64,000 nt of DNA, from contig DATJVN010000118.1 of assembly GCA_035501755.1 (NCBI GenBank), forward strand, positions 2,424 through 66,423, given 5' to 3'. A program made the position numbers and the translations under genes. The DNA comes from Bryobacteraceae bacterium. GTDB taxonomy: Bacteria; Acidobacteriota; Terriglobia; Bryobacterales; Bryobacteraceae. Below the pieces are notes generated by a model. It was not told the origin of the DNA, did not search any database, and saw nothing but the letters and a program-made list of their open reading frames with translations. Positions 5,224-11,355 of this stretch are shown here, one piece after another. How positions within the stretch are numbered: the first letter of the stretch is position 1; each line of letters begins with the position of its first letter.

Positions 5224-5460
5224 TTACTTCTTGGGATGTGCCTGGATCTCATGCAGGAGATACGTATCGCCAGCGATCGTGAAATAGAATCGCCAGGAGT
5301 CGTTGACGCGCGCCTGCCAGACATTGCCGCTCTTCAATCGGAGCGACGGATGGCGTGGGTCTTCGAGCAGGAGGACGGATTGTTTGTCAAACGCTCGCTG
5401 GACAAGGGCCGGAGCTTTCCGATAACTCCGCAGGAAGTGTGGCGAGAATTCAACCTTCAT
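5224..5460 (-). CDS. Type II toxin, RelE/ParE superfamily
   Basis: 78 aa, MKVEFSPHFLRSYRKAP...WQARVNDSWRFYFTIAGDTYLLHEIQAHPKK, the typical RelE/ParE-like size and C-terminal pattern. Start overlaps the antitoxin stop by 11 nt. Confidence 0.75.
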   Translation of the reverse strand: MKVEFSPHFLRSYRKAPALVQRAFDKQSVLLLEDPRHPSLRLKSGNVWQARVNDSWRFYFTIAGDTYLLHEIQAHPKK

Positions 5461-5740
5461 CGCGCCGGGCGTTTCTTGGTCGGCGCTTGGCGGTCCGCGC
5501 CTCCTTATGCAGCGCCTTGAGGAAGGCCTGGTGGGTCCGGAAGGGACCGTAGCCTTTGCCGGCTTGGAATTCAGCAATGCTTTGCGCGATACCACGATCG
5601 ACAACCGTCTTCGGCTCGAAAACAATCTTGCCGTTCTCGGCGCGAGCTTCGAGTATGTCGCCCACCTCGATCCCGATCTCGTCGCGCACACGCTGCGGTA
5701 TCACCACTTGAAATTTGTTCTTGACGGCTACGATGGGCAT
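5450..5740 (-). CDS. Type II antitoxin, AbrB/MazE/SpoVT-type DNA-binding domain
   Basis: 96 aa starting MPIVAVKNKFQVVIPQRVRDEIGIEVGDILEARAENGKIVFEP (looped-hinge-helix swapped-hairpin motif). It is only the 3' end of the 740-aa shadow ORF 5450..7672. Confidence 0.8.
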   Translation of the reverse strand: MPIVAVKNKFQVVIPQRVRDEIGIEVGDILEARAENGKIVFEPKTVVDRGIAQSIAEFQAGKGYGPFRTHQAFLKALHKEARTAKRRPRNARRDEG

Positions 5741-5851: not shown

Positions 5852-7681
5852 ATGCAATCCAAAACGTTTTTTCTCACCCTCGCGCTCGCATCTCTTTGCG
5901 TAGCGCAGTCCCGGCAATGGGACCATCCCATGCGGCAGGCCGTGCGCGGCGACCATGGCGCCGTCGCGGCCGGTAGCGAATACGCGACCGAAGCCGGGAT
6001 GCGCACCTATTATCGCGGCGGAAACGCCGTCGATGCGGGCGTCGCCGCGATGTTCGCTGCTTCCGTCACCGAGTTCTCCCACTTCGGGATGGGCGGCGAA
6101 GCGCCGATTCTCATCCGCACCAAGGAGGGGAAAGTTTATGCGATCGCCGGCGTGGGGCCCATGCCCAAGCTCGCCAGTGCGGACATGTTCCGTAACCGCC
6201 CGCTCAAAATCGGCGAGCTTTTTGAAACCGAGCCCGGCGGGTTGAAGCACATCATCCCCGTCGCCGGAATCATGCCCGCGCTGGTGCCCGGCATGGTCGA
6301 CGCCGGCCTGGTCGCGCTGCGCGATTTCGGTACGAAATCCTTCCATGAGATCGCCGAGCCGGCTGTCGAACTGGCCGACGGCTTCGCCATCGACGCGATG
6401 CGCGCCGATAGCATCGCCGCCAGCCGCCAGTTTTTCGAATTGTGGCCCACCTCGATGGCGCATTTCATGCCCAACGGGCACATGCCTCGCGTCGGCGACA
6501 TTTTCCGCCAGCCCGACCTCGCCCGCACGCTGCGCGGCATGATTGAAGCCGAGAAAAAAGCGCTCGCCGCGGGCGCCAGCCGCCAGGGCGGCATCGACGC
6601 CGTGCGCAATTATTTTTATCGCGGCGAAATCGCGCGTAAAATCGACGCCTTCATGAAAGCCAACGGCGGCCTGCTGCGCTATGAAGACATGGCCGCGTTC
6701 AAGCTCGAGCCCGAAGAGCCGGTGATGGGCACCTATCACGGCTATAAAGTTTATAAACCCGGCTTCTGGAGCCAGGGCCCCGCGATGATCGAAACGCTCA
6801 ACATCATGGAAGCGTTCGAAGGCCGCTCGCCGCCGCTCAATTCGGCCGAATATATTCACCGGTTGACTGAAGCGCTGAAGCTCGCCTACGCCGATCGCGA
6901 CACCTATTACGGCGATCCCAAATTCAATCACATTCCGTCCGACGTTCTGCTCTCGAAAGAATACGGCCTGGAGCGCCGCAAGCTGATCACCGAGCATGCG
7001 TCGATGGATTTCATCCCCGGCACCATTCATGGAAAAACCGGCCACCACCCCACCGAGAGCCCCATGGCGCACATCAAGATCGACGACGCACTGATGGCCA
7101 AGGACACCACCTGCGTGGACGCGATCGATAAGGACGGGATCGTATTTTCGGCGACACCCTCGGGCGCGTGGATGCCCAGCGTGATCGCCGGCGACACCGG
7201 AATTCCGCTGACCGAGCGCGCGCAGCAGTTCGTCCTGACGCCGGGAAATCCGAACGAGCTCGCCGGAGGGAAACGCCCCCGCGTCACGCTCAGCCCTACC
7301 ATCGTCACCCTCCCCGACGGCCGCCCGTTCCTGGCCATGTCGACTCCCGGCGGCGACAACCAGGATCAGGCGCTGATCCAGGTTTTCTTCAACGTGATCG
7401 ATTTCAATTTGAATGCGCAGAACGCAGTGGAGGCTCCGCGGTTTCAGACCCGGCACCTGGTGTCGAGCTTCGATAATCATGCCTGGAGCCGCGGCGATTT
7501 GATTCTCGACGAGCGCATCCCCGGCGCGGTTGCCAATGAACTGGCTGAGCGAGGCCATCACGTGAGCTCGTGCTCGCGCTGGTCCAACGGGGCGTGCCCG
7601 GTGTTGATCAAAGTTCTGCCCAGCGGAATTCTGGAAGCGGGCGCGGACCCGTTCTACGACCGCTCGGCGCATGCGTGGTGA
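5852..7681 (+). CDS. ggt: Gamma-glutamyltransferase
   Basis: 609 aa with signal peptide MQSKTFFLTLALASLCVAQS. GGT-family blocks including the autoprocessing/nucleophile region KDTTCVDAIDKDG and C-terminal PGGDNQDQA / EAGADP motifs. Confidence 0.92.
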   Translation: MQSKTFFLTLALASLCVAQSRQWDHPMRQAVRGDHGAVAAGSEYATEAGMRTYYRGGNAVDAGVAAMFAASVTEFSHFGMGGEAPILIRTKEGKVYAIAGVGPMPKLASADMFRNRPLKIGELFETEPGGLKHIIPVAGIMPALVPGMVDAGLVALRDFGTKSFHEIAEPAVELADGFAIDAMRADSIAASRQFFELWPTSMAHFMPNGHMPRVGDIFRQPDLARTLRGMIEAEKKALAAGASRQGGIDAVRNYFYRGEIARKIDAFMKANGGLLRYEDMAAFKLEPEEPVMGTYHGYKVYKPGFWSQGPAMIETLNIMEAFEGRSPPLNSAEYIHRLTEALKLAYADRDTYYGDPKFNHIPSDVLLSKEYGLERRKLITEHASMDFIPGTIHGKTGHHPTESPMAHIKIDDALMAKDTTCVDAIDKDGIVFSATPSGAWMPSVIAGDTGIPLTERAQQFVLTPGNPNELAGGKRPRVTLSPTIVTLPDGRPFLAMSTPGGDNQDQALIQVFFNVIDFNLNAQNAVEAPRFQTRHLVSSFDNHAWSRGDLILDERIPGAVANELAERGHHVSSCSRWSNGACPVLIKVLPSGILEAGADPFYDRSAHAW

Positions 7682-7682
7682 G

Positions 7683-8202
7683 CAGTTCGTAGTTCATGGT
7701 CCGTAGTCCGTAGTTAGGGCCTGCCAATCGAGGCGCGCCTAAACTCCTGGTAGCGGGCGAAGCTGGCCGTCCGGCGAATCAATGTGGCAAGATGCGCTCG
7801 AAGACGTCTGACCCCTTCCGTCTTAGCGTACCCGAGGCGGCCGGCGATTTCGAAAAGCGTGTCAAGTTCGTACATGGAACCGACTGCGATCTGGATGAAC
7901 CTGGCGAACTCGCCCGGACTGCCGCGTCCGGCGCCCTCGGCGATGTTGGTTGGAACCGATATGGCGGCTCGCCGCACCTGGCTCGTTAAGCCGTACACCT
8001 CTTCGCGCGGCCAGCCGCGTGTCGAACGGTACGCATCTTCGACGAGTGAGATCGCGGCGCGCCAAATCTCAAGGCTGGAAACGCTGCGTGGCGCCATGAT
8101 TATATGTGCTCGAATCCGCGGAGAGTTCTCTGAGAATCCGTCCGCTCTCCGCATGAATCGCGAACCCCGAACTACGAACCACGGACCACGAACCACGAAC
8201 TG
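7683..8202 (-). mobile_element. rRNA-IVS-like cassette: four-helix-bundle gene bracketed by 33-nt inverted repeats
   Basis: 7683-7715 CAGTTCGTAGTTCATGGTCCGTAGTCCGTAGTT versus reverse complement of 8170-8202 CAGTTCGTGGTTCGTGGTCCGTGGTTCGTAGTT: 29/33 identical, and all 4 differences are transitions. Arms are tandem GTYCGTR heptamers. The cassette fills the ggt-stop to DUF72-start gap to within 1-2 nt. Confidence 0.6.
7714..8097 (-). CDS. Four-helix-bundle protein (23S rRNA intervening-sequence protein family)
   Basis: EIWRAAISLVEDAYRSTRGWPREEVYGLTSQVRRAAISVPTNIAEGAGRGSPGEFARFIQIAVGSMYELDT matches the family signature (...RAA.SI..NIAEG..R....E...FL.IA.GS..E..). Start moved to Met42 of the track ORF, because the first 41 codons translate the right repeat arm. 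Confidence 0.85.
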   Translation of the reverse strand: MAPRSVSSLEIWRAAISLVEDAYRSTRGWPREEVYGLTSQVRRAAISVPTNIAEGAGRGSPGEFARFIQIAVGSMYELDTLFEIAGRLGYAKTEGVRRLRAHLATLIRRTASFARYQEFRRASIGRP

Positions 8203-8203
8203 A

Positions 8204-9136
8204 GTGCTCCCCCTCTTCACCCCCGACTTCGACCGCGACGGCCTCGCCGCACGTTTGCGCTCGCTCGCCGCGGAAAAAATCTGGATTGGCGCCAGCTCGT
8301 GGAAATATGAAGGCTGGCTTGGACAGATCTACTCCCGCGACCGTTATCTTTCACGCGGCAAATTTTCCGAAAAGCGCTTCAACGCGGAATGTCTGGCAGA
8401 ATACGCCGAAACATTCCCCGTGGTCTGCGGAGATTTTTCCTTTTATCAGTTCCCGTCGCCGGAGTTCTGGAAAAAATTGTTCGCTTCGGCGCCGGCTTCG
8501 TTGCGCTTCGCACTGAAGGTTCCCGAGGAAGTCACCTGCGAGACTTTCCCGAAGCAGCCGCGTTACGGATCGCGCGCCGGACAGCGGAACGAATCCTTCC
8601 TGAACTCCGACGCACTTCAGTCGTTGTTCCTCGATCCGCTCACCCCCTACGCCGCGCGCGTCTCGCCGCTGATCTTCGAATTCGGCGCGCGATCCACGCC
8701 GCCCATCGCGTTCATCGACCGTCTGGACGCCTTTTTCGACGCGCTCCCCGGAACCTTCCGCTACGCGGTCGAGATTCGCAACCGCGAATTTCTCGCCCCG
8801 CGGTATTTCGACTCGCTCCGCGCGCACTCGGTCGCGCACGTCTTCAATTCCTGGACGCGCATGCCGCCTCTGTCGCACCAGTTCGCCATCGAAGCCGCCT
8901 TCACCGCCGATTTCTCCGTCACGCGCGCGCTGCTTCGGCCAGGCCGCGCGTATGAAGACGCGGTCAAAATGTTTTCGCCTTACGATAAAATCCTCGACGA
9001 AAATCCGGAAGTCCGAGAGTCGCTGCGCGCGCTGATCCGCCGCATGCGCGAGGAACGCCGCGCCGCTTACATCTTCGTCAACAACCGCCTGGAAGGAAAC
9101 GCGCCGGAAACGATTCGCGCCGTCATCGCCGAATGA
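8204..9136 (+). CDS. DUF72 (UPF0759) family protein
   Basis: 310 aa with GTG start. WIGASSWKYEGWLGQIYS N-terminal block and overall TIM-barrel-like DUF72 pattern. ATGA overlap with hrpB. Confidence 0.8.
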   Translation: MLPLFTPDFDRDGLAARLRSLAAEKIWIGASSWKYEGWLGQIYSRDRYLSRGKFSEKRFNAECLAEYAETFPVVCGDFSFYQFPSPEFWKKLFASAPASLRFALKVPEEVTCETFPKQPRYGSRAGQRNESFLNSDALQSLFLDPLTPYAARVSPLIFEFGARSTPPIAFIDRLDAFFDALPGTFRYAVEIRNREFLAPRYFDSLRAHSVAHVFNSWTRMPPLSHQFAIEAAFTADFSVTRALLRPGRAYEDAVKMFSPYDKILDENPEVRESLRALIRRMREERRAAYIFVNNRLEGNAPETIRAVIAE

Positions 9137-11355
9137 AGCTGCCCATCGACGATCTTCTGCCGCAAATCCGCGCCGAATTGCGCCGCTCGAAGCGCCTGGT
9201 GATCGAAGCGCCGCCTGGCGCGGGTAAGACCACGCGCGTGCCTCCCGCGCTGCTCGAATTCGGCGGCGTGATCGTTCTCGAGCCGCGCCGCATCGCCGCG
9301 CGCATGGCCGCGCGCCGCGTCGCCTCCGAGCTTGGCGAGCGCGTCGGCGAAACCACCGGCTACCAGGTCCGTTTCGAAGACATGAGCGGACCCAAAACGC
9401 GTCTGCGATTTCTCACCGAAGGCGTCCTCACGCGGCGCCTGCTCTCCGACCCCGGGTTGCGCGGCGTCGCTACGGTGGTCCTGGACGAATTTCACGAGCG
9501 CCATCTCGACACCGATCTCGCGCTCGCGCTTTTGAAGCGCCGCGATCTGCGCTTGGTGGTCATGTCCGCCACGCTCGACTCCGCCCCCGTCGCGCGCTAC
9601 CTCGATGGCTGCGCCATCCTGCGCTCGGAAGGCCGGCTGCACCCTCTGCGCATCGACTACACCCCGCATTCCCCCGCGCCGCTTGAAGAGCAGGTCGCCG
9701 CCGCACTCGAGCGGCTGGTCAAGGAACGTCTGGATGGCGACGTGCTTGTCTTTCTTCCCGGCGCCGCCGAAATTCGCCGCGCTGCGCGCGCCGTGGAGCG
9801 TTTCGGCCTGCTCACGCTTCCGCTTCACGGCGATCTTTCGCCTGCCGAGCAGGATCGCGCCGTCGCGCCCGCCGATCGCCCCAAAGTGATTCTCTCCACC
9901 AATATCGCCGAAAGCTCCATCACCATCGAGGGCGTCACCGCGGTCATCGACAGCGGCCTCGCTCGCGTGGCCGTCGATTCGCCCTGGACCGGCCTTCCCT
10001 CGCTGAACGTTCAGCGCATCAGCCAGTCTTCGGCCGTGCAGCGCGCCGGCCGCGCCGGACGTCTGCGGCCCGGACGCGTCATCCGGCTTTATACCGCCGA
10101 CGATTTTCATCGGCGCCCGCTCTCCGATCCGCCCGAAATCCTGCGCCGCGAGCTTTCACACATCGTGCTGCAACTCCGCGCCATGAAAACCGATTCGCTC
10201 GATTGGCTCACGCCTCCGCCCAAAGCCTCGCTCGATGCCGCGACCGCGCTGCTCGACCGGATCGGCGCGACTCCGGAGATGGCCGCTTTGCCTGTTCCGC
10301 CGCGCCTCGCAAAGCTGCTCATCGAGGGCGCTCGTCGCGGCGTTCCTGCCAAAAGCTGCGCCATCGCCGCGGTTCTCAGCGCGGGCGAGCGTAGCTCCTC
10401 CGATCTGCTCACCCTCGCCGAATCCGACTGGCAGCCGCACACGCGCCGCATCTTCGACCAGCTTCGCCGCATCTTTCCCGGTCCCGACCGCGGCGCCGAC
10501 GCCGATGCCCTTCAGGCCGTGCTCGCCGCTTTTCCTGATCGCGTCGCGCGCCATCGCCGCTCCGGCGATCTGCTCATTTCCTCCGGCGGCTCCGCCCGGT
10601 TCCCCGATTGCCGCGCCGAATTTCTCATCGCCGTCGATATCGAAGAACGTCGCGACCGCGGCCTGCCGCTGGTCCGCCTCGCCGCGCCCATCGAGCCCGA
10701 ATGGCTGCTCGACCGCGCCTTCGAATCGACCGCGCTTGAATGGAATCGCGACGCCGAGCGCGTCGACCAGGTCACCGCCCTCATGTACGACCAGATCGTC
10801 ATCGAGGAAACGCGCTTTCCCGCGCCGCCCGGCCCGGACGCCGAGCGCATTCTTTTCGAACACGCGCTCGAATCCGGCATCGACCGCTTCATCGATCGCG
10901 AAGAGCTGGACCAGATCCGCTCCCGCGCGGCATTTGCCGGCATCGCCATCGACGAGTGCCGCGGGCTCACCGAGCTGTGCCGCGGAAAAACCTCTTTCCG
11001 CGAGATTGCCGGCCTCGCCGATGCTCTGCGCCCGCCCCATCTCGATCGCCTCGCGCCCGAACGCGTTCGTCTTCCCGGCGGCCGCGCCGTCAAAGTGCAT
11101 TATGAAGCCGGCAAGCCGCCCTGGATCGAATCGCGCTTGCAGGATTTTTTCGGCCTCTCCGAGACGCCGCGAGTGGCGAACACGCCGGTCGTGATCCATC
11201 TGCTCGCGCCCAATCGCCGGCCCGTCCAGGTCACCTCCGATCTCGCCGGATTCTGGCAGCGCCTCTATCCGCAGGTCCGCCGCGAGCTGGCGCGGCGCTA
11301 CCCCAAACACAAGTGGCCCGAGGATCCGCTGCGCGTCACTCCAGCCGCCGGTTGA
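9133..11355 (+). CDS. hrpB: ATP-dependent RNA helicase HrpB (DEAH box)
   Basis: N-terminus LPIDDLLPQIRAELRRSKRLVIEAPPGAGKTTRVP (Walker A), LDEFHERH (DEAH-type box), SATLD, TNIAESSITIEG, QRAGRAGR motifs and an HrpB-type C-terminal domain. Confidence 0.9.
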   Translation: MKLPIDDLLPQIRAELRRSKRLVIEAPPGAGKTTRVPPALLEFGGVIVLEPRRIAARMAARRVASELGERVGETTGYQVRFEDMSGPKTRLRFLTEGVLTRRLLSDPGLRGVATVVLDEFHERHLDTDLALALLKRRDLRLVVMSATLDSAPVARYLDGCAILRSEGRLHPLRIDYTPHSPAPLEEQVAAALERLVKERLDGDVLVFLPGAAEIRRAARAVERFGLLTLPLHGDLSPAEQDRAVAPADRPKVILSTNIAESSITIEGVTAVIDSGLARVAVDSPWTGLPSLNVQRISQSSAVQRAGRAGRLRPGRVIRLYTADDFHRRPLSDPPEILRRELSHIVLQLRAMKTDSLDWLTPPPKASLDAATALLDRIGATPEMAALPVPPRLAKLLIEGARRGVPAKSCAIAAVLSAGERSSSDLLTLAESDWQPHTRRIFDQLRRIFPGPDRGADADALQAVLAAFPDRVARHRRSGDLLISSGGSARFPDCRAEFLIAVDIEERRDRGLPLVRLAAPIEPEWLLDRAFESTALEWNRDAERVDQVTALMYDQIVIEETRFPAPPGPDAERILFEHALESGIDRFIDREELDQIRSRAAFAGIAIDECRGLTELCRGKTSFREIAGLADALRPPHLDRLAPERVRLPGGRAVKVHYEAGKPPWIESRLQDFFGLSETPRVANTPVVIHLLAPNRRPVQVTSDLAGFWQRLYPQVRRELARRYPKHKWPEDPLRVTPAAG

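Follow-up and report, generated by a model that had tools for sequence, protein, structure and literature searches.

The segment at positions 7684-8204 of a 64,000-nucleotide stretch of DNA from a Bryobacteraceae bacterium (contig DATJVN010000118.1; the whole stretch is referred to here as the window) is probably a selfish cassette of the intervening sequence (IVS) type, whose arms would loop it out of transcripts. This 520-bp insertion lies between ggt, encoding gamma-glutamyltranspeptidase, and a gene for a YecE-like DUF72 protein, and consists of an open reading frame (ORF) of the PF05635 family enclosed by inverted arrays of tandem heptamers. No rRNA and no other Rfam family was detected in the 64-kb window, which places the cassette outside a 23S rRNA gene. 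In this case, an IVS-type cassette outside rRNA, the locus looks less like an ordinary gene than like a selfish cassette that is widespread and apparently undescribed.

Presence and absence of the cassette is evident at the same junction in related genomes. The first-pass annotation, made from the nucleotide sequence, had read the segment as a discrete insertion and had proposed a search for an empty site in relatives, and this reading was borne out. Four relatives whose DUF72 is 81-82% identical to that of the window (L091-L094) have no cassette, and their ggt TGA stop codon overlaps the DUF72 GTG start codon (..TGGTGAATGCT.. or ..GCCTGGTGAATGCTTCG..). Such an overlap of stop and start codons is typical of translationally coupled genes. 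In four other relatives (L090, L095, L096, and L097) this very junction is occupied by a PF05635 gene, which in each case runs antisense to the operon. Together with the window these make five occupied alleles, whose cassette proteins are 52-70% identical and whose heptamers differ. Against the relatives with alternative cassettes, identity breaks sharply at 7683/7684 and 8204/8205. L090, for example, the closest of the relatives with a different cassette, retains approximately 94% identity to the window in its flanks up to TGGTGAGC on the left and again from TGCTCCCCC on the right, while the interior is wholly different, with GGGGAGT-type heptamers in the arms and a cassette protein that is 58% identical to that of the window. 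In three of the empty-site relatives (L092, L093, and L094) ggt and/or hrpB were called as several fragments in long-contig assemblies, which probably reflects indel errors in the assemblies rather than real pseudogenes; both are intact in L091.

The occupied alleles do not follow the phylogeny of their flanking genes. By GGT and DUF72 identity the window groups with L090 (96% and 91%, respectively), and L096 groups with L097 and the empty-site relative L091. Two arm types, GTTCGTG-like and GGGGAGT-like, together with cassette-protein similarity, conflict with this grouping: the window and L097 have GTTCGTG-type arms and cassette proteins that are 63% identical, while L090 and L096 have GGGGAGT/GGGCAGT arms and cassette proteins that are 70% identical. 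Between the window and L090 the synonymous sites of the cassette gene are saturated (pS = 0.83, dN = 0.44), whereas the flanking genes have dS of 0.30-0.46 and dN of 0.02-0.045. The combination of saturated cassette sites, low flank divergence, and conflict between arms and flanks argues that the cassettes are not simple orthologs, and divergence of the L090 cassette in situ was ruled out by the same comparison. The cassettes of the window and L090 were swapped or independently inserted, and two old lineages and an empty allele occur at one site. The allele of L095 (1961-2400) is truncated to an 87-amino-acid ORF that has lost its N-terminal half but keeps GTTTGTA-type arms, and may be a decay intermediate between an ORF-bearing cassette and an ORF-less hairpin.

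The left arm of the window cassette on the plus strand (7683-7715) reads CAGTTCGTAGTTCATGGTCCGTAGTCCGTAGTT and the reverse complement of the right arm (8170-8202) reads CAGTTCGTGGTTCGTGGTCCGTGGTTCGTAGTT. Direct reading confirmed the earlier description of these as inverted 33-nt arms of tandem heptamers, identical at 29 of 33 positions and differing by transitions only (three A/G and one C/T). A repeat search extended the inverted repeat to 37 nt (7683-7719 and 8166-8202) and identified the arms as the sole notable repeats within 2 kb of the cassette. Tandem Repeats Finder (TRF) likewise reported two period-7 arrays, one of 4.4 copies (7684-7714; GTYCGTR as read on the plus strand) and one of 5.7 copies (8161-8200), which are the only such arrays of more than four copies in the window. 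Searching for three consecutive GTYCGTR heptamers with up to three mismatches gave seven matches, every one within the two arms, where 0.05 would be expected. No Rfam family matched the arms or hairpins in the whole window or in 20 related loci at gathering thresholds, nor at permissive thresholds in 7400-8500.

The cassette gene (7714-8097, minus strand) encodes a 127-amino-acid four-helix-bundle protein similar to S23p and Avd. Its TAA stop codon (7714-7716) falls within the left arm, which is the 3′ arm of the cassette transcript, while the right arm is the 5′ arm. Between the right arm and the ATG lies a 68-nt leader (8098-8165, minus strand), in which an 8-bp hairpin pairs 8118-8125 with 8145-8152. 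The insertion adjoins the host genes closely. The TGA of ggt (5852-7681, plus strand) occupies 7679-7681 and the arm begins at 7683, while the other arm ends at 8202 and the GTG of DUF72 (8204-9136, plus strand) is at 8204, a start position backed by an ATG at the equivalent position in four relatives. DUF72 in turn overlaps the hrpB helicase gene (9133-11355), so that ggt, DUF72, and hrpB make up a tightly coupled operon. A terminator-like site, defined as a GC-rich hairpin followed by a T-tract, was not found in 7500-8400. Directly upstream of ggt is a likely type II toxin-antitoxin pair (5224-5740, minus strand), composed of a candidate MazE/AbrB-type antitoxin ORF of approximately 96 amino acids (roughly 5450-5740; PF04014, E = 3.8e-9) followed by an overlapping 78-amino-acid ORF (roughly 5224-5460) that has no Pfam match and resembles RelE/ParE by eye.

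The predicted protein matches PF05635 (E = 1.1e-30, 106.4 bits against a cutoff of 33.8) and TIGR02436 (E = 2.8e-30, 104.7 bits against a cutoff of 24). The nearest solved structure is the homopentamer of Xanthomonas XCC0516 (PDB 2gsc, E = 6e-27). Every invariant column of a 36-sequence alignment is kept in the window protein, including YGLTSQxRRAAxSVPxNIAEG; the published family motif is GxxRxxxSxxxNxxE (PMC3936711). Wherever dS was measurable among the cassettes, dN/dS was 0.06-0.13, and the protein is under purifying selection. The sole ORF of the cassette is that of PF05635, and no transposase, HUH nuclease, or recombinase domain was found in or beside it with Pfam/NCBIfam, padloc, or phrogs. 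The cassette protein itself had no match in the padloc and phrogs libraries, and tblastn against phage records gave none. Membership in the HEPN superfamily was considered and dropped, as the HEPN survey (PMC3710099) has no mention of the PF05635 family.

In order to place the window cassette within its family, a profile search of one genome per species was performed, which confirmed 596 homologs, and the 80 best, those most similar to the query, were read. The loci come from Acidobacteriota, Bacteroidota, Chloroflexota, Planctomycetota, Cyanobacteriota, Pseudomonadota, Nitrospirota, Bipolaricaulota, Verrucomicrobiota, and one archaeon. Arms were detected by aligning the 130-nt 5′ flank of each gene to the reverse complement of its 3′ flank, with both kinds of transition scored alike; the register of such alignments is ambiguous in tandem repeats. 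Set against a cross-locus control, 67 of 83 loci had an arm score beyond the 95th percentile and 45 exceeded the control maximum, which was 30; the window scored 56. At least two low scorers, from Xanthomonas (L034) and Luteimonas (L043), do have arms, but the start codon had been placed too far upstream. Where strong tandem signals occurred, they were of period 7 in 19 of 22 5′ flanks and 14 of 15 3′ flanks, compared to 4 of 240 control segments. Cyanobacterial plasmids share the arrangement, for example with GGGTGTG arms on Nostoc punctiforme pNPUN01. On plasmid alpha of Nostoc sp. PCC 7120 (L219, 3776-4126), a CTCTGCC array of five copies lies downstream of a four-helix-bundle gene with no matching upstream array, and a transposase gene lies approximately 550 bp away on the upstream side, so the 5′ arm may have been lost through insertion of an IS element.

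The heptamer unit is specific to each lineage (e.g., GGTAGGT, GTGATGA, GGGAGTC, AATGGTG, GAGTGTG, and TAAGACT), and there was no cross-lineage consensus beyond base composition (3.56 bits against a null of 3.49 ± 0.28). What is retained is polarity: read inward, 5′ to 3′, the leading arm is G-rich and C-poor, with G exceeding C, in 60 of 67 loci, a polarity that inverted arms necessarily show on both strands. Apparently orthologous junctions differ in their heptamer, with both arms altered together. The accB-accC junction, for example, has GGGAATC in Xanthomonas and GTGATTC in Luteimonas, and fadB-fadA has three distinct units in Flavobacterium, Cyclobacteriaceae, and Daejeonella. The near-identical copies L001-L005 (P0001) have identical arms and hence hold no covariation information. 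In one locus (L133, reverse strand, array from approximately 1901 as oriented) the units of a single long array run from GTCCGTA through GTCAGTG to the GTCAGTGA type and the complementary arm matches, a visible example of heptamer identity drifting and then being amplified.

In the loci read, the cassette is usually found where one gene of a housekeeping operon gives way to the next. The cassette gene is co-directional with both neighbors in 52 of the approximately 59 loci in which both could be called. The gap from the upstream stop codon to the arm has a median of 4 nt (interquartile range -3 to 12) and that from the arm to the downstream start codon a median of 8 nt (interquartile range 2 to 18), with both within ±20 nt in 34 of 52 loci. 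The neighbors are typically subunits or consecutive enzymes of one pathway, and the same types of junction recur across phyla. The junction between the small and large subunits of methylmalonyl-CoA mutase (mutA-mutB) is occupied in Bacteroidota and Chloroflexota, accB-accC in Xanthomonadaceae and Planctomycetota, and fadB-fadA in three families of Bacteroidota; others include fadA-fadE, sdhA-sdhB, panB-rluA, and an ATPase-permease junction of an ABC transporter. A JGI annotation implied an insertion splitting carB, but in L013, L019, and L047 the flanking paralogs are, by eye, the two subunits of methylmalonyl-CoA mutase. Stop/start junctions within essential operons, in at least nine phyla, turn out to be where PF05635 genes normally reside, and rRNA is a minority habitat. 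Published surveys report 23S_rRNA_IVP genes between cmr genes in cas loci (PMC3936711), which fits insertion at junctions, such that a CRISPR function need not follow. A 3.6-kb metagenomic contig (L174, 1500-3580) holds two PF05635 cassettes at successive junctions of one operon, with GTGACCA-type heptamers in one and GTGCGTG/TTCGTGG-type heptamers in the other.

The accB-accC junction of Xanthomonas also connects the cassettes to repeats that have been described independently. In Xanthomonas vasicola (L034, 2465-2925) and Luteimonas (L043) accB and accC are separated by a gene of the crystallized XCC0516 type. The heptamer array runs into the annotated start of this gene, whose true start codon probably lies further downstream, and the 3′ arm is followed directly by the ATG of accC. 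The Xanthomonas campestris array GGGAATCGGGAGTGGAGAATCGGGAATC is located 6 nt past bccP (XCC0517) and overlaps the annotated start of XCC0516. This array is repeat #15 of 186 GGGAATC arrays mapped genome-wide (Rehm et al., PMC4692102 supplement), 70 pairs of which are convergent, with arrays close to ORF ends; the study has no mention of the PF05635 family (PMC4692102).

Hairpins of the same heptamers also occur with no ORF between them. A scan of metagenomes for three consecutive GTYCGTR units matched at least 120 loci, 80 of which were read. A PF05635 protein was encoded in only two of these 80, while 22 contained short hairpins in which a G-rich array is followed by a loop of 10-190 nt and a complementary array; in two the partner array was on the opposite side of the G-rich array. 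The ORF-less hairpins are intergenic and pressed against gene ends, and none had a match in Rfam. One such hairpin (L119, 760-870) separates two co-directional genes: the TAG stop codon of the upstream gene comes from the first heptamer, and the downstream ATG lies a few nucleotides past the last. Furthermore, the heptamer of a given cassette recurs in its own flanks of approximately 4.5 kb, with 12 clusters in 5 of 44 loci compared to approximately 0.6 expected, an excess of about 20-fold. By analogy, these hairpins may relate to the cassettes as miniature elements do to autonomous ones or as REPINs do to RAYT, which would imply a functional link between protein and repeat.

Among the closest known counterparts is the ORF-bearing 23S rRNA IVS of Leptospira, Coxiella, and Brucella (Ralph and McClelland 1993; PMC4990558), which shares the PF05635/S23p protein, a stem of approximately 28-37 bp around the ORF, heptamer arms of variable copy number, and a sporadic, horizontally patterned distribution. 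The resemblance to S23p-type IVSs had been pointed out for the window cassette, and it extends to the heptamer arms. In Coxiella burnetii the IVS encodes an S23p protein of this family within a 28-bp terminal stem, with three tandem GACAGAT heptamers and a degenerate fourth upstream of the ORF, in a copy number that varies between strains (PMC4990558). As heptamer arms and an S23p ORF occur together there too, the same module is found in rRNA and between protein-coding genes. The rRNA IVSs differ in that they sit within the rRNA gene, at helix 9, 25, or 45, whereas the window cassette lies antisense between ggt and DUF72. The Coxiella IVS is cut by recombinant RNase III and its in vivo termini fall midway along the stem (PMC4990558); excision has thus been shown experimentally for the rRNA form and is predicted for the window cassette.

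Several other kinds of element share part of this design. With transposons and miniature inverted-repeat transposable elements the cassette has terminal inverted repeats in common, but no transposase or recombinase was found in it. Like REPIN/RAYT systems, it has a single-copy gene between inverted short repeats that are also dispersed as lineage-specific, gene-less intergenic hairpins. It departs from them in that its protein is a four-helix bundle with no HUH (IS200/IS605-type) nuclease motif, its repeats are tandem heptamers rather than a fixed palindrome, and its link between protein and repeat is an inference. Neisserial Correia and enterobacterial ERIC elements are small intergenic insertions with inverted ends that are co-transcribed with their neighbors and yield long RNA hairpins, which RNase III or RNase E then processes. 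Unlike the cassette, which has lineage-specific heptamer arrays at its ends and an ORF between them, they are conserved in sequence, have defined target duplications, and contain no ORF. The Avd protein of diversity-generating retroelements has a homologous, pentameric four-helix-bundle fold (PDB 4DWL) and acts by binding nucleic acid with a partner enzyme (PMC10053308). No reverse transcriptase, template or variable repeat, or integrase was found near the window cassette, whose neighbors are ggt, DUF72, the HrpB helicase gene, and the MazE-like gene. In 1990, Mazel reportedly described heptamer repeats (STRR) in cyanobacteria. Intergenic heptamers have also been published as GGGAATC in Xanthomonas and GGGGAYT in Nostoc (PMC4692102) and as TAACTGA in Beggiatoaceae (PMC4679880). 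They resemble the cassette arms in being tandem 7-nt units located between genes, tens of nucleotides from gene ends and often in convergent inverted pairs, but those studies treat G-quadruplexes, slippage, or regulation, with no tie to PF05635 or rRNA IVSs.

Taken as an IVS-type cassette, the segment would work as follows. Whichever strand is transcribed, the G/T-rich leading arm would pair with the C/A-rich trailing arm into a helix of approximately 30-37 bp in any transcript that contains both, which in the usual co-directional case would be the operon mRNA. Such a helix would loop the cassette out and bring the ggt stop and DUF72 start codons within approximately 3 nt of each other; in the window they lie 2 nt and 1 nt from the helix and would thereby mimic the overlap of the empty site. 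The long duplex would also be a substrate for RNase III, as demonstrated for the rRNA version. Looping and cleavage together could leave the operon almost undisturbed by the insertion and still allow expression of the cassette gene, which has no recognizable promoter of its own and would depend on read-through from the operon at most loci, though not in the antisense window copy. Binding to the heptamer arrays, in either RNA or DNA form, is the most likely activity of the PF05635 protein, which may also act in trans on the far more common ORF-less hairpins. The G-rich-first polarity could be favored because such a leading arm is rich in stop triplets, or because the C-rich arm, transcribed last, would never be exposed as single-stranded RNA attractive to Rho. 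Stop triplets occur in all three frames of 34% of inward-reading arms, compared to 11% of composition-matched shuffles and 12% of outward-reading arms, which lends moderate support to placement of stops and is insufficient for it to be adopted as a general explanation of the arms.

The strand on which the helix is maintained bears directly on this mechanism. The first-pass annotation had observed that all four arm differences become G-U or U-G pairs in minus-strand RNA and A-C mismatches in plus-strand RNA, which is correct: the arms-only duplex is predicted at -77.4 kcal/mol on the minus strand and -56.4 kcal/mol on the plus strand, and the fold of the whole region has z = -5.6 and z = -3.5, respectively. 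It had further taken this asymmetry as the mark of selection on the minus-strand RNA, which would make the cassette a module excised, or moving, via its own sense transcript. All five alleles at the ggt-DUF72 junction do form the more stable duplex on the cassette-sense strand, and deamination tied to transcription of the host operon predicts the opposite bias. These alleles represent only two or three arm lineages, however, and among the 67 loci with clear arms the direction of mismatch is symmetric. G-U pairs in the sense RNA outnumber A-C mismatches in 24 loci and the reverse is true in 22; transition mismatches total 75 G-U in sense RNA against 68 A-C; and the arms-only duplex is more stable in sense in 29 loci and in antisense in 32, the split with full flanks being 32 of 67. 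Strand-specific wobble is therefore rejected as a family-wide rule. Only one of the 67 loci is more sense-biased than the window, and equally strong antisense bias is seen in L046, L027, L068, and L016. Mismatch direction is over-dispersed among loci (simulated p = 0.002), and clustered mismatches are expected when slippage amplifies one variant heptamer, such that mismatches within a locus are not independent and the four in the window do not amount to four separate events. We consider selection on the minus-strand RNA to be improbable.

The absence of strand bias is compatible with an IVS-type cassette and equally with a purely DNA-level element, in which the arms would be terminal inverted repeats or hairpin recombination sites, RNA pairing a by-product, and the PF05635 protein a DNA-binding mobilizing factor. 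This element we regard as unlikely but of substantial weight, as its strand-symmetric mismatches are joined by presence/absence polymorphism and allele replacement at one site, numerous ORF-less hairpins with the same heptamers, a G-rich array facing inward on both strands, and heptamer copy number that varies between Coxiella strains (PMC4990558). It is set back by the lack of any transposase, HUH nuclease, or recombinase domain within the cassette or next to it, and of a consistent target-site duplication, by the old and vertically inherited look of cassettes at orthologous junctions, where dS is saturated, and by the cleavage of the homologous rRNA stem by RNase III (PMC4990558). Location at junctions between subunits of one complex or pathway, in positions conserved across families and with arms adjoining stop and start codons, could instead point to a host-beneficial regulator, in which hairpin and protein tune expression, mRNA stability, or translational coupling of the operon. 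The purifying selection on the protein would fit such a role, as would the unusual stability of repeat-bearing intergenic regions in Xanthomonas (PMC4692102). Yet in close relatives the operon functions with no cassette, the occupied junctions are functionally unrelated, the L095 allele is a truncated pseudogene, and cassette types at one site have been swapped independently of host lineage, all of which makes this role as improbable as selection on the minus strand. That the gene is an ordinary one beside a chance inverted repeat or terminator-like hairpins is scarcely credible. Intergenic hairpins are common, but an arm score of 56 against a control maximum of 30, seven heptamer-pattern matches against 0.05 expected, the lack of a T-tract terminator, and the recurrence of the architecture in 67 of 83 loci speak otherwise.

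Several observations also weigh against the IVS-type cassette that we prefer. Stem formation and RNase III processing at this cassette are argued from analogy with the rRNA IVSs. The symmetry of mismatches fits selection on both orientations no better than DNA inverted repeats kept alike by concerted evolution, through slippage or template switching. A scan of the cassette region found no sigma-70-type promoter, and the gene is antisense to the host operon, a rare orientation (1 of approximately 59). The family statistics describe the homologs most similar to the query, with neighboring genes and orientations called by a simple heuristic based on ORFs and third-codon-position GC content. Finally, no known fold of a nuclease or recombinase is present in the PF05635 protein. 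Short direct repeats (AG, TGA, GAA) can be read at some junctions, but they give no consistent target-site duplication among the five ggt-DUF72 alleles, so the case for mobility comes solely from presence/absence and the incongruence of alleles.

A search of the full-text literature, with most subscription journals outside its reach, found nothing that links inverted heptamer arrays to free-standing PF05635 genes or to operon junctions. The literature at hand comprises the Coxiella IVS study (PMC4990558), papers on diversity-generating retroelements noting homology to Avd, surveys of cas loci that list the domain, and three studies of heptamer repeats. The family-wide pattern stands a fair chance of being an unrecognized class of element. 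Though this is less likely than not, PF05635 pentamers and lineage-specific heptamer hairpins may together form one widespread class made up of autonomous cassettes and ORF-less derivatives. Three bodies of literature meet at this locus, on rRNA IVSs, on the overabundance of heptamer repeats in bacteria, and on four-helix-bundle proteins like Avd, and no paper connecting them was found. A tractable test system is available in Xanthomonas campestris, where a crystal structure of XCC0516 exists, its gene is flanked by bccP and accC, and its heptamer is that of the 186 mapped GGGAATC arrays. PF05635 genes inside cas or metabolic operons should meanwhile be viewed with caution and not taken as evidence of functional association.

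ORF-bearing IVSs in rRNA have been known since 1993 (Ralph and McClelland 1993) and still call for an explanation of how they arose, how they move, and what their protein does. If cassettes and hairpins do form one class, its autonomous form would be a gene between inverted heptamer arrays, inserted at the stop/start junctions of housekeeping operons or in rRNA helices. Such a class would explain the origin of the ORF-bearing rRNA IVSs, the excess of intergenic heptamers such as GGGAATC in Xanthomonas and the STRR-like repeats of cyanobacteria, and the scattered "four helix bundle protein" genes within operons and cas loci, and it would imply a mechanism of maintenance or mobility that operates without a known transposase.

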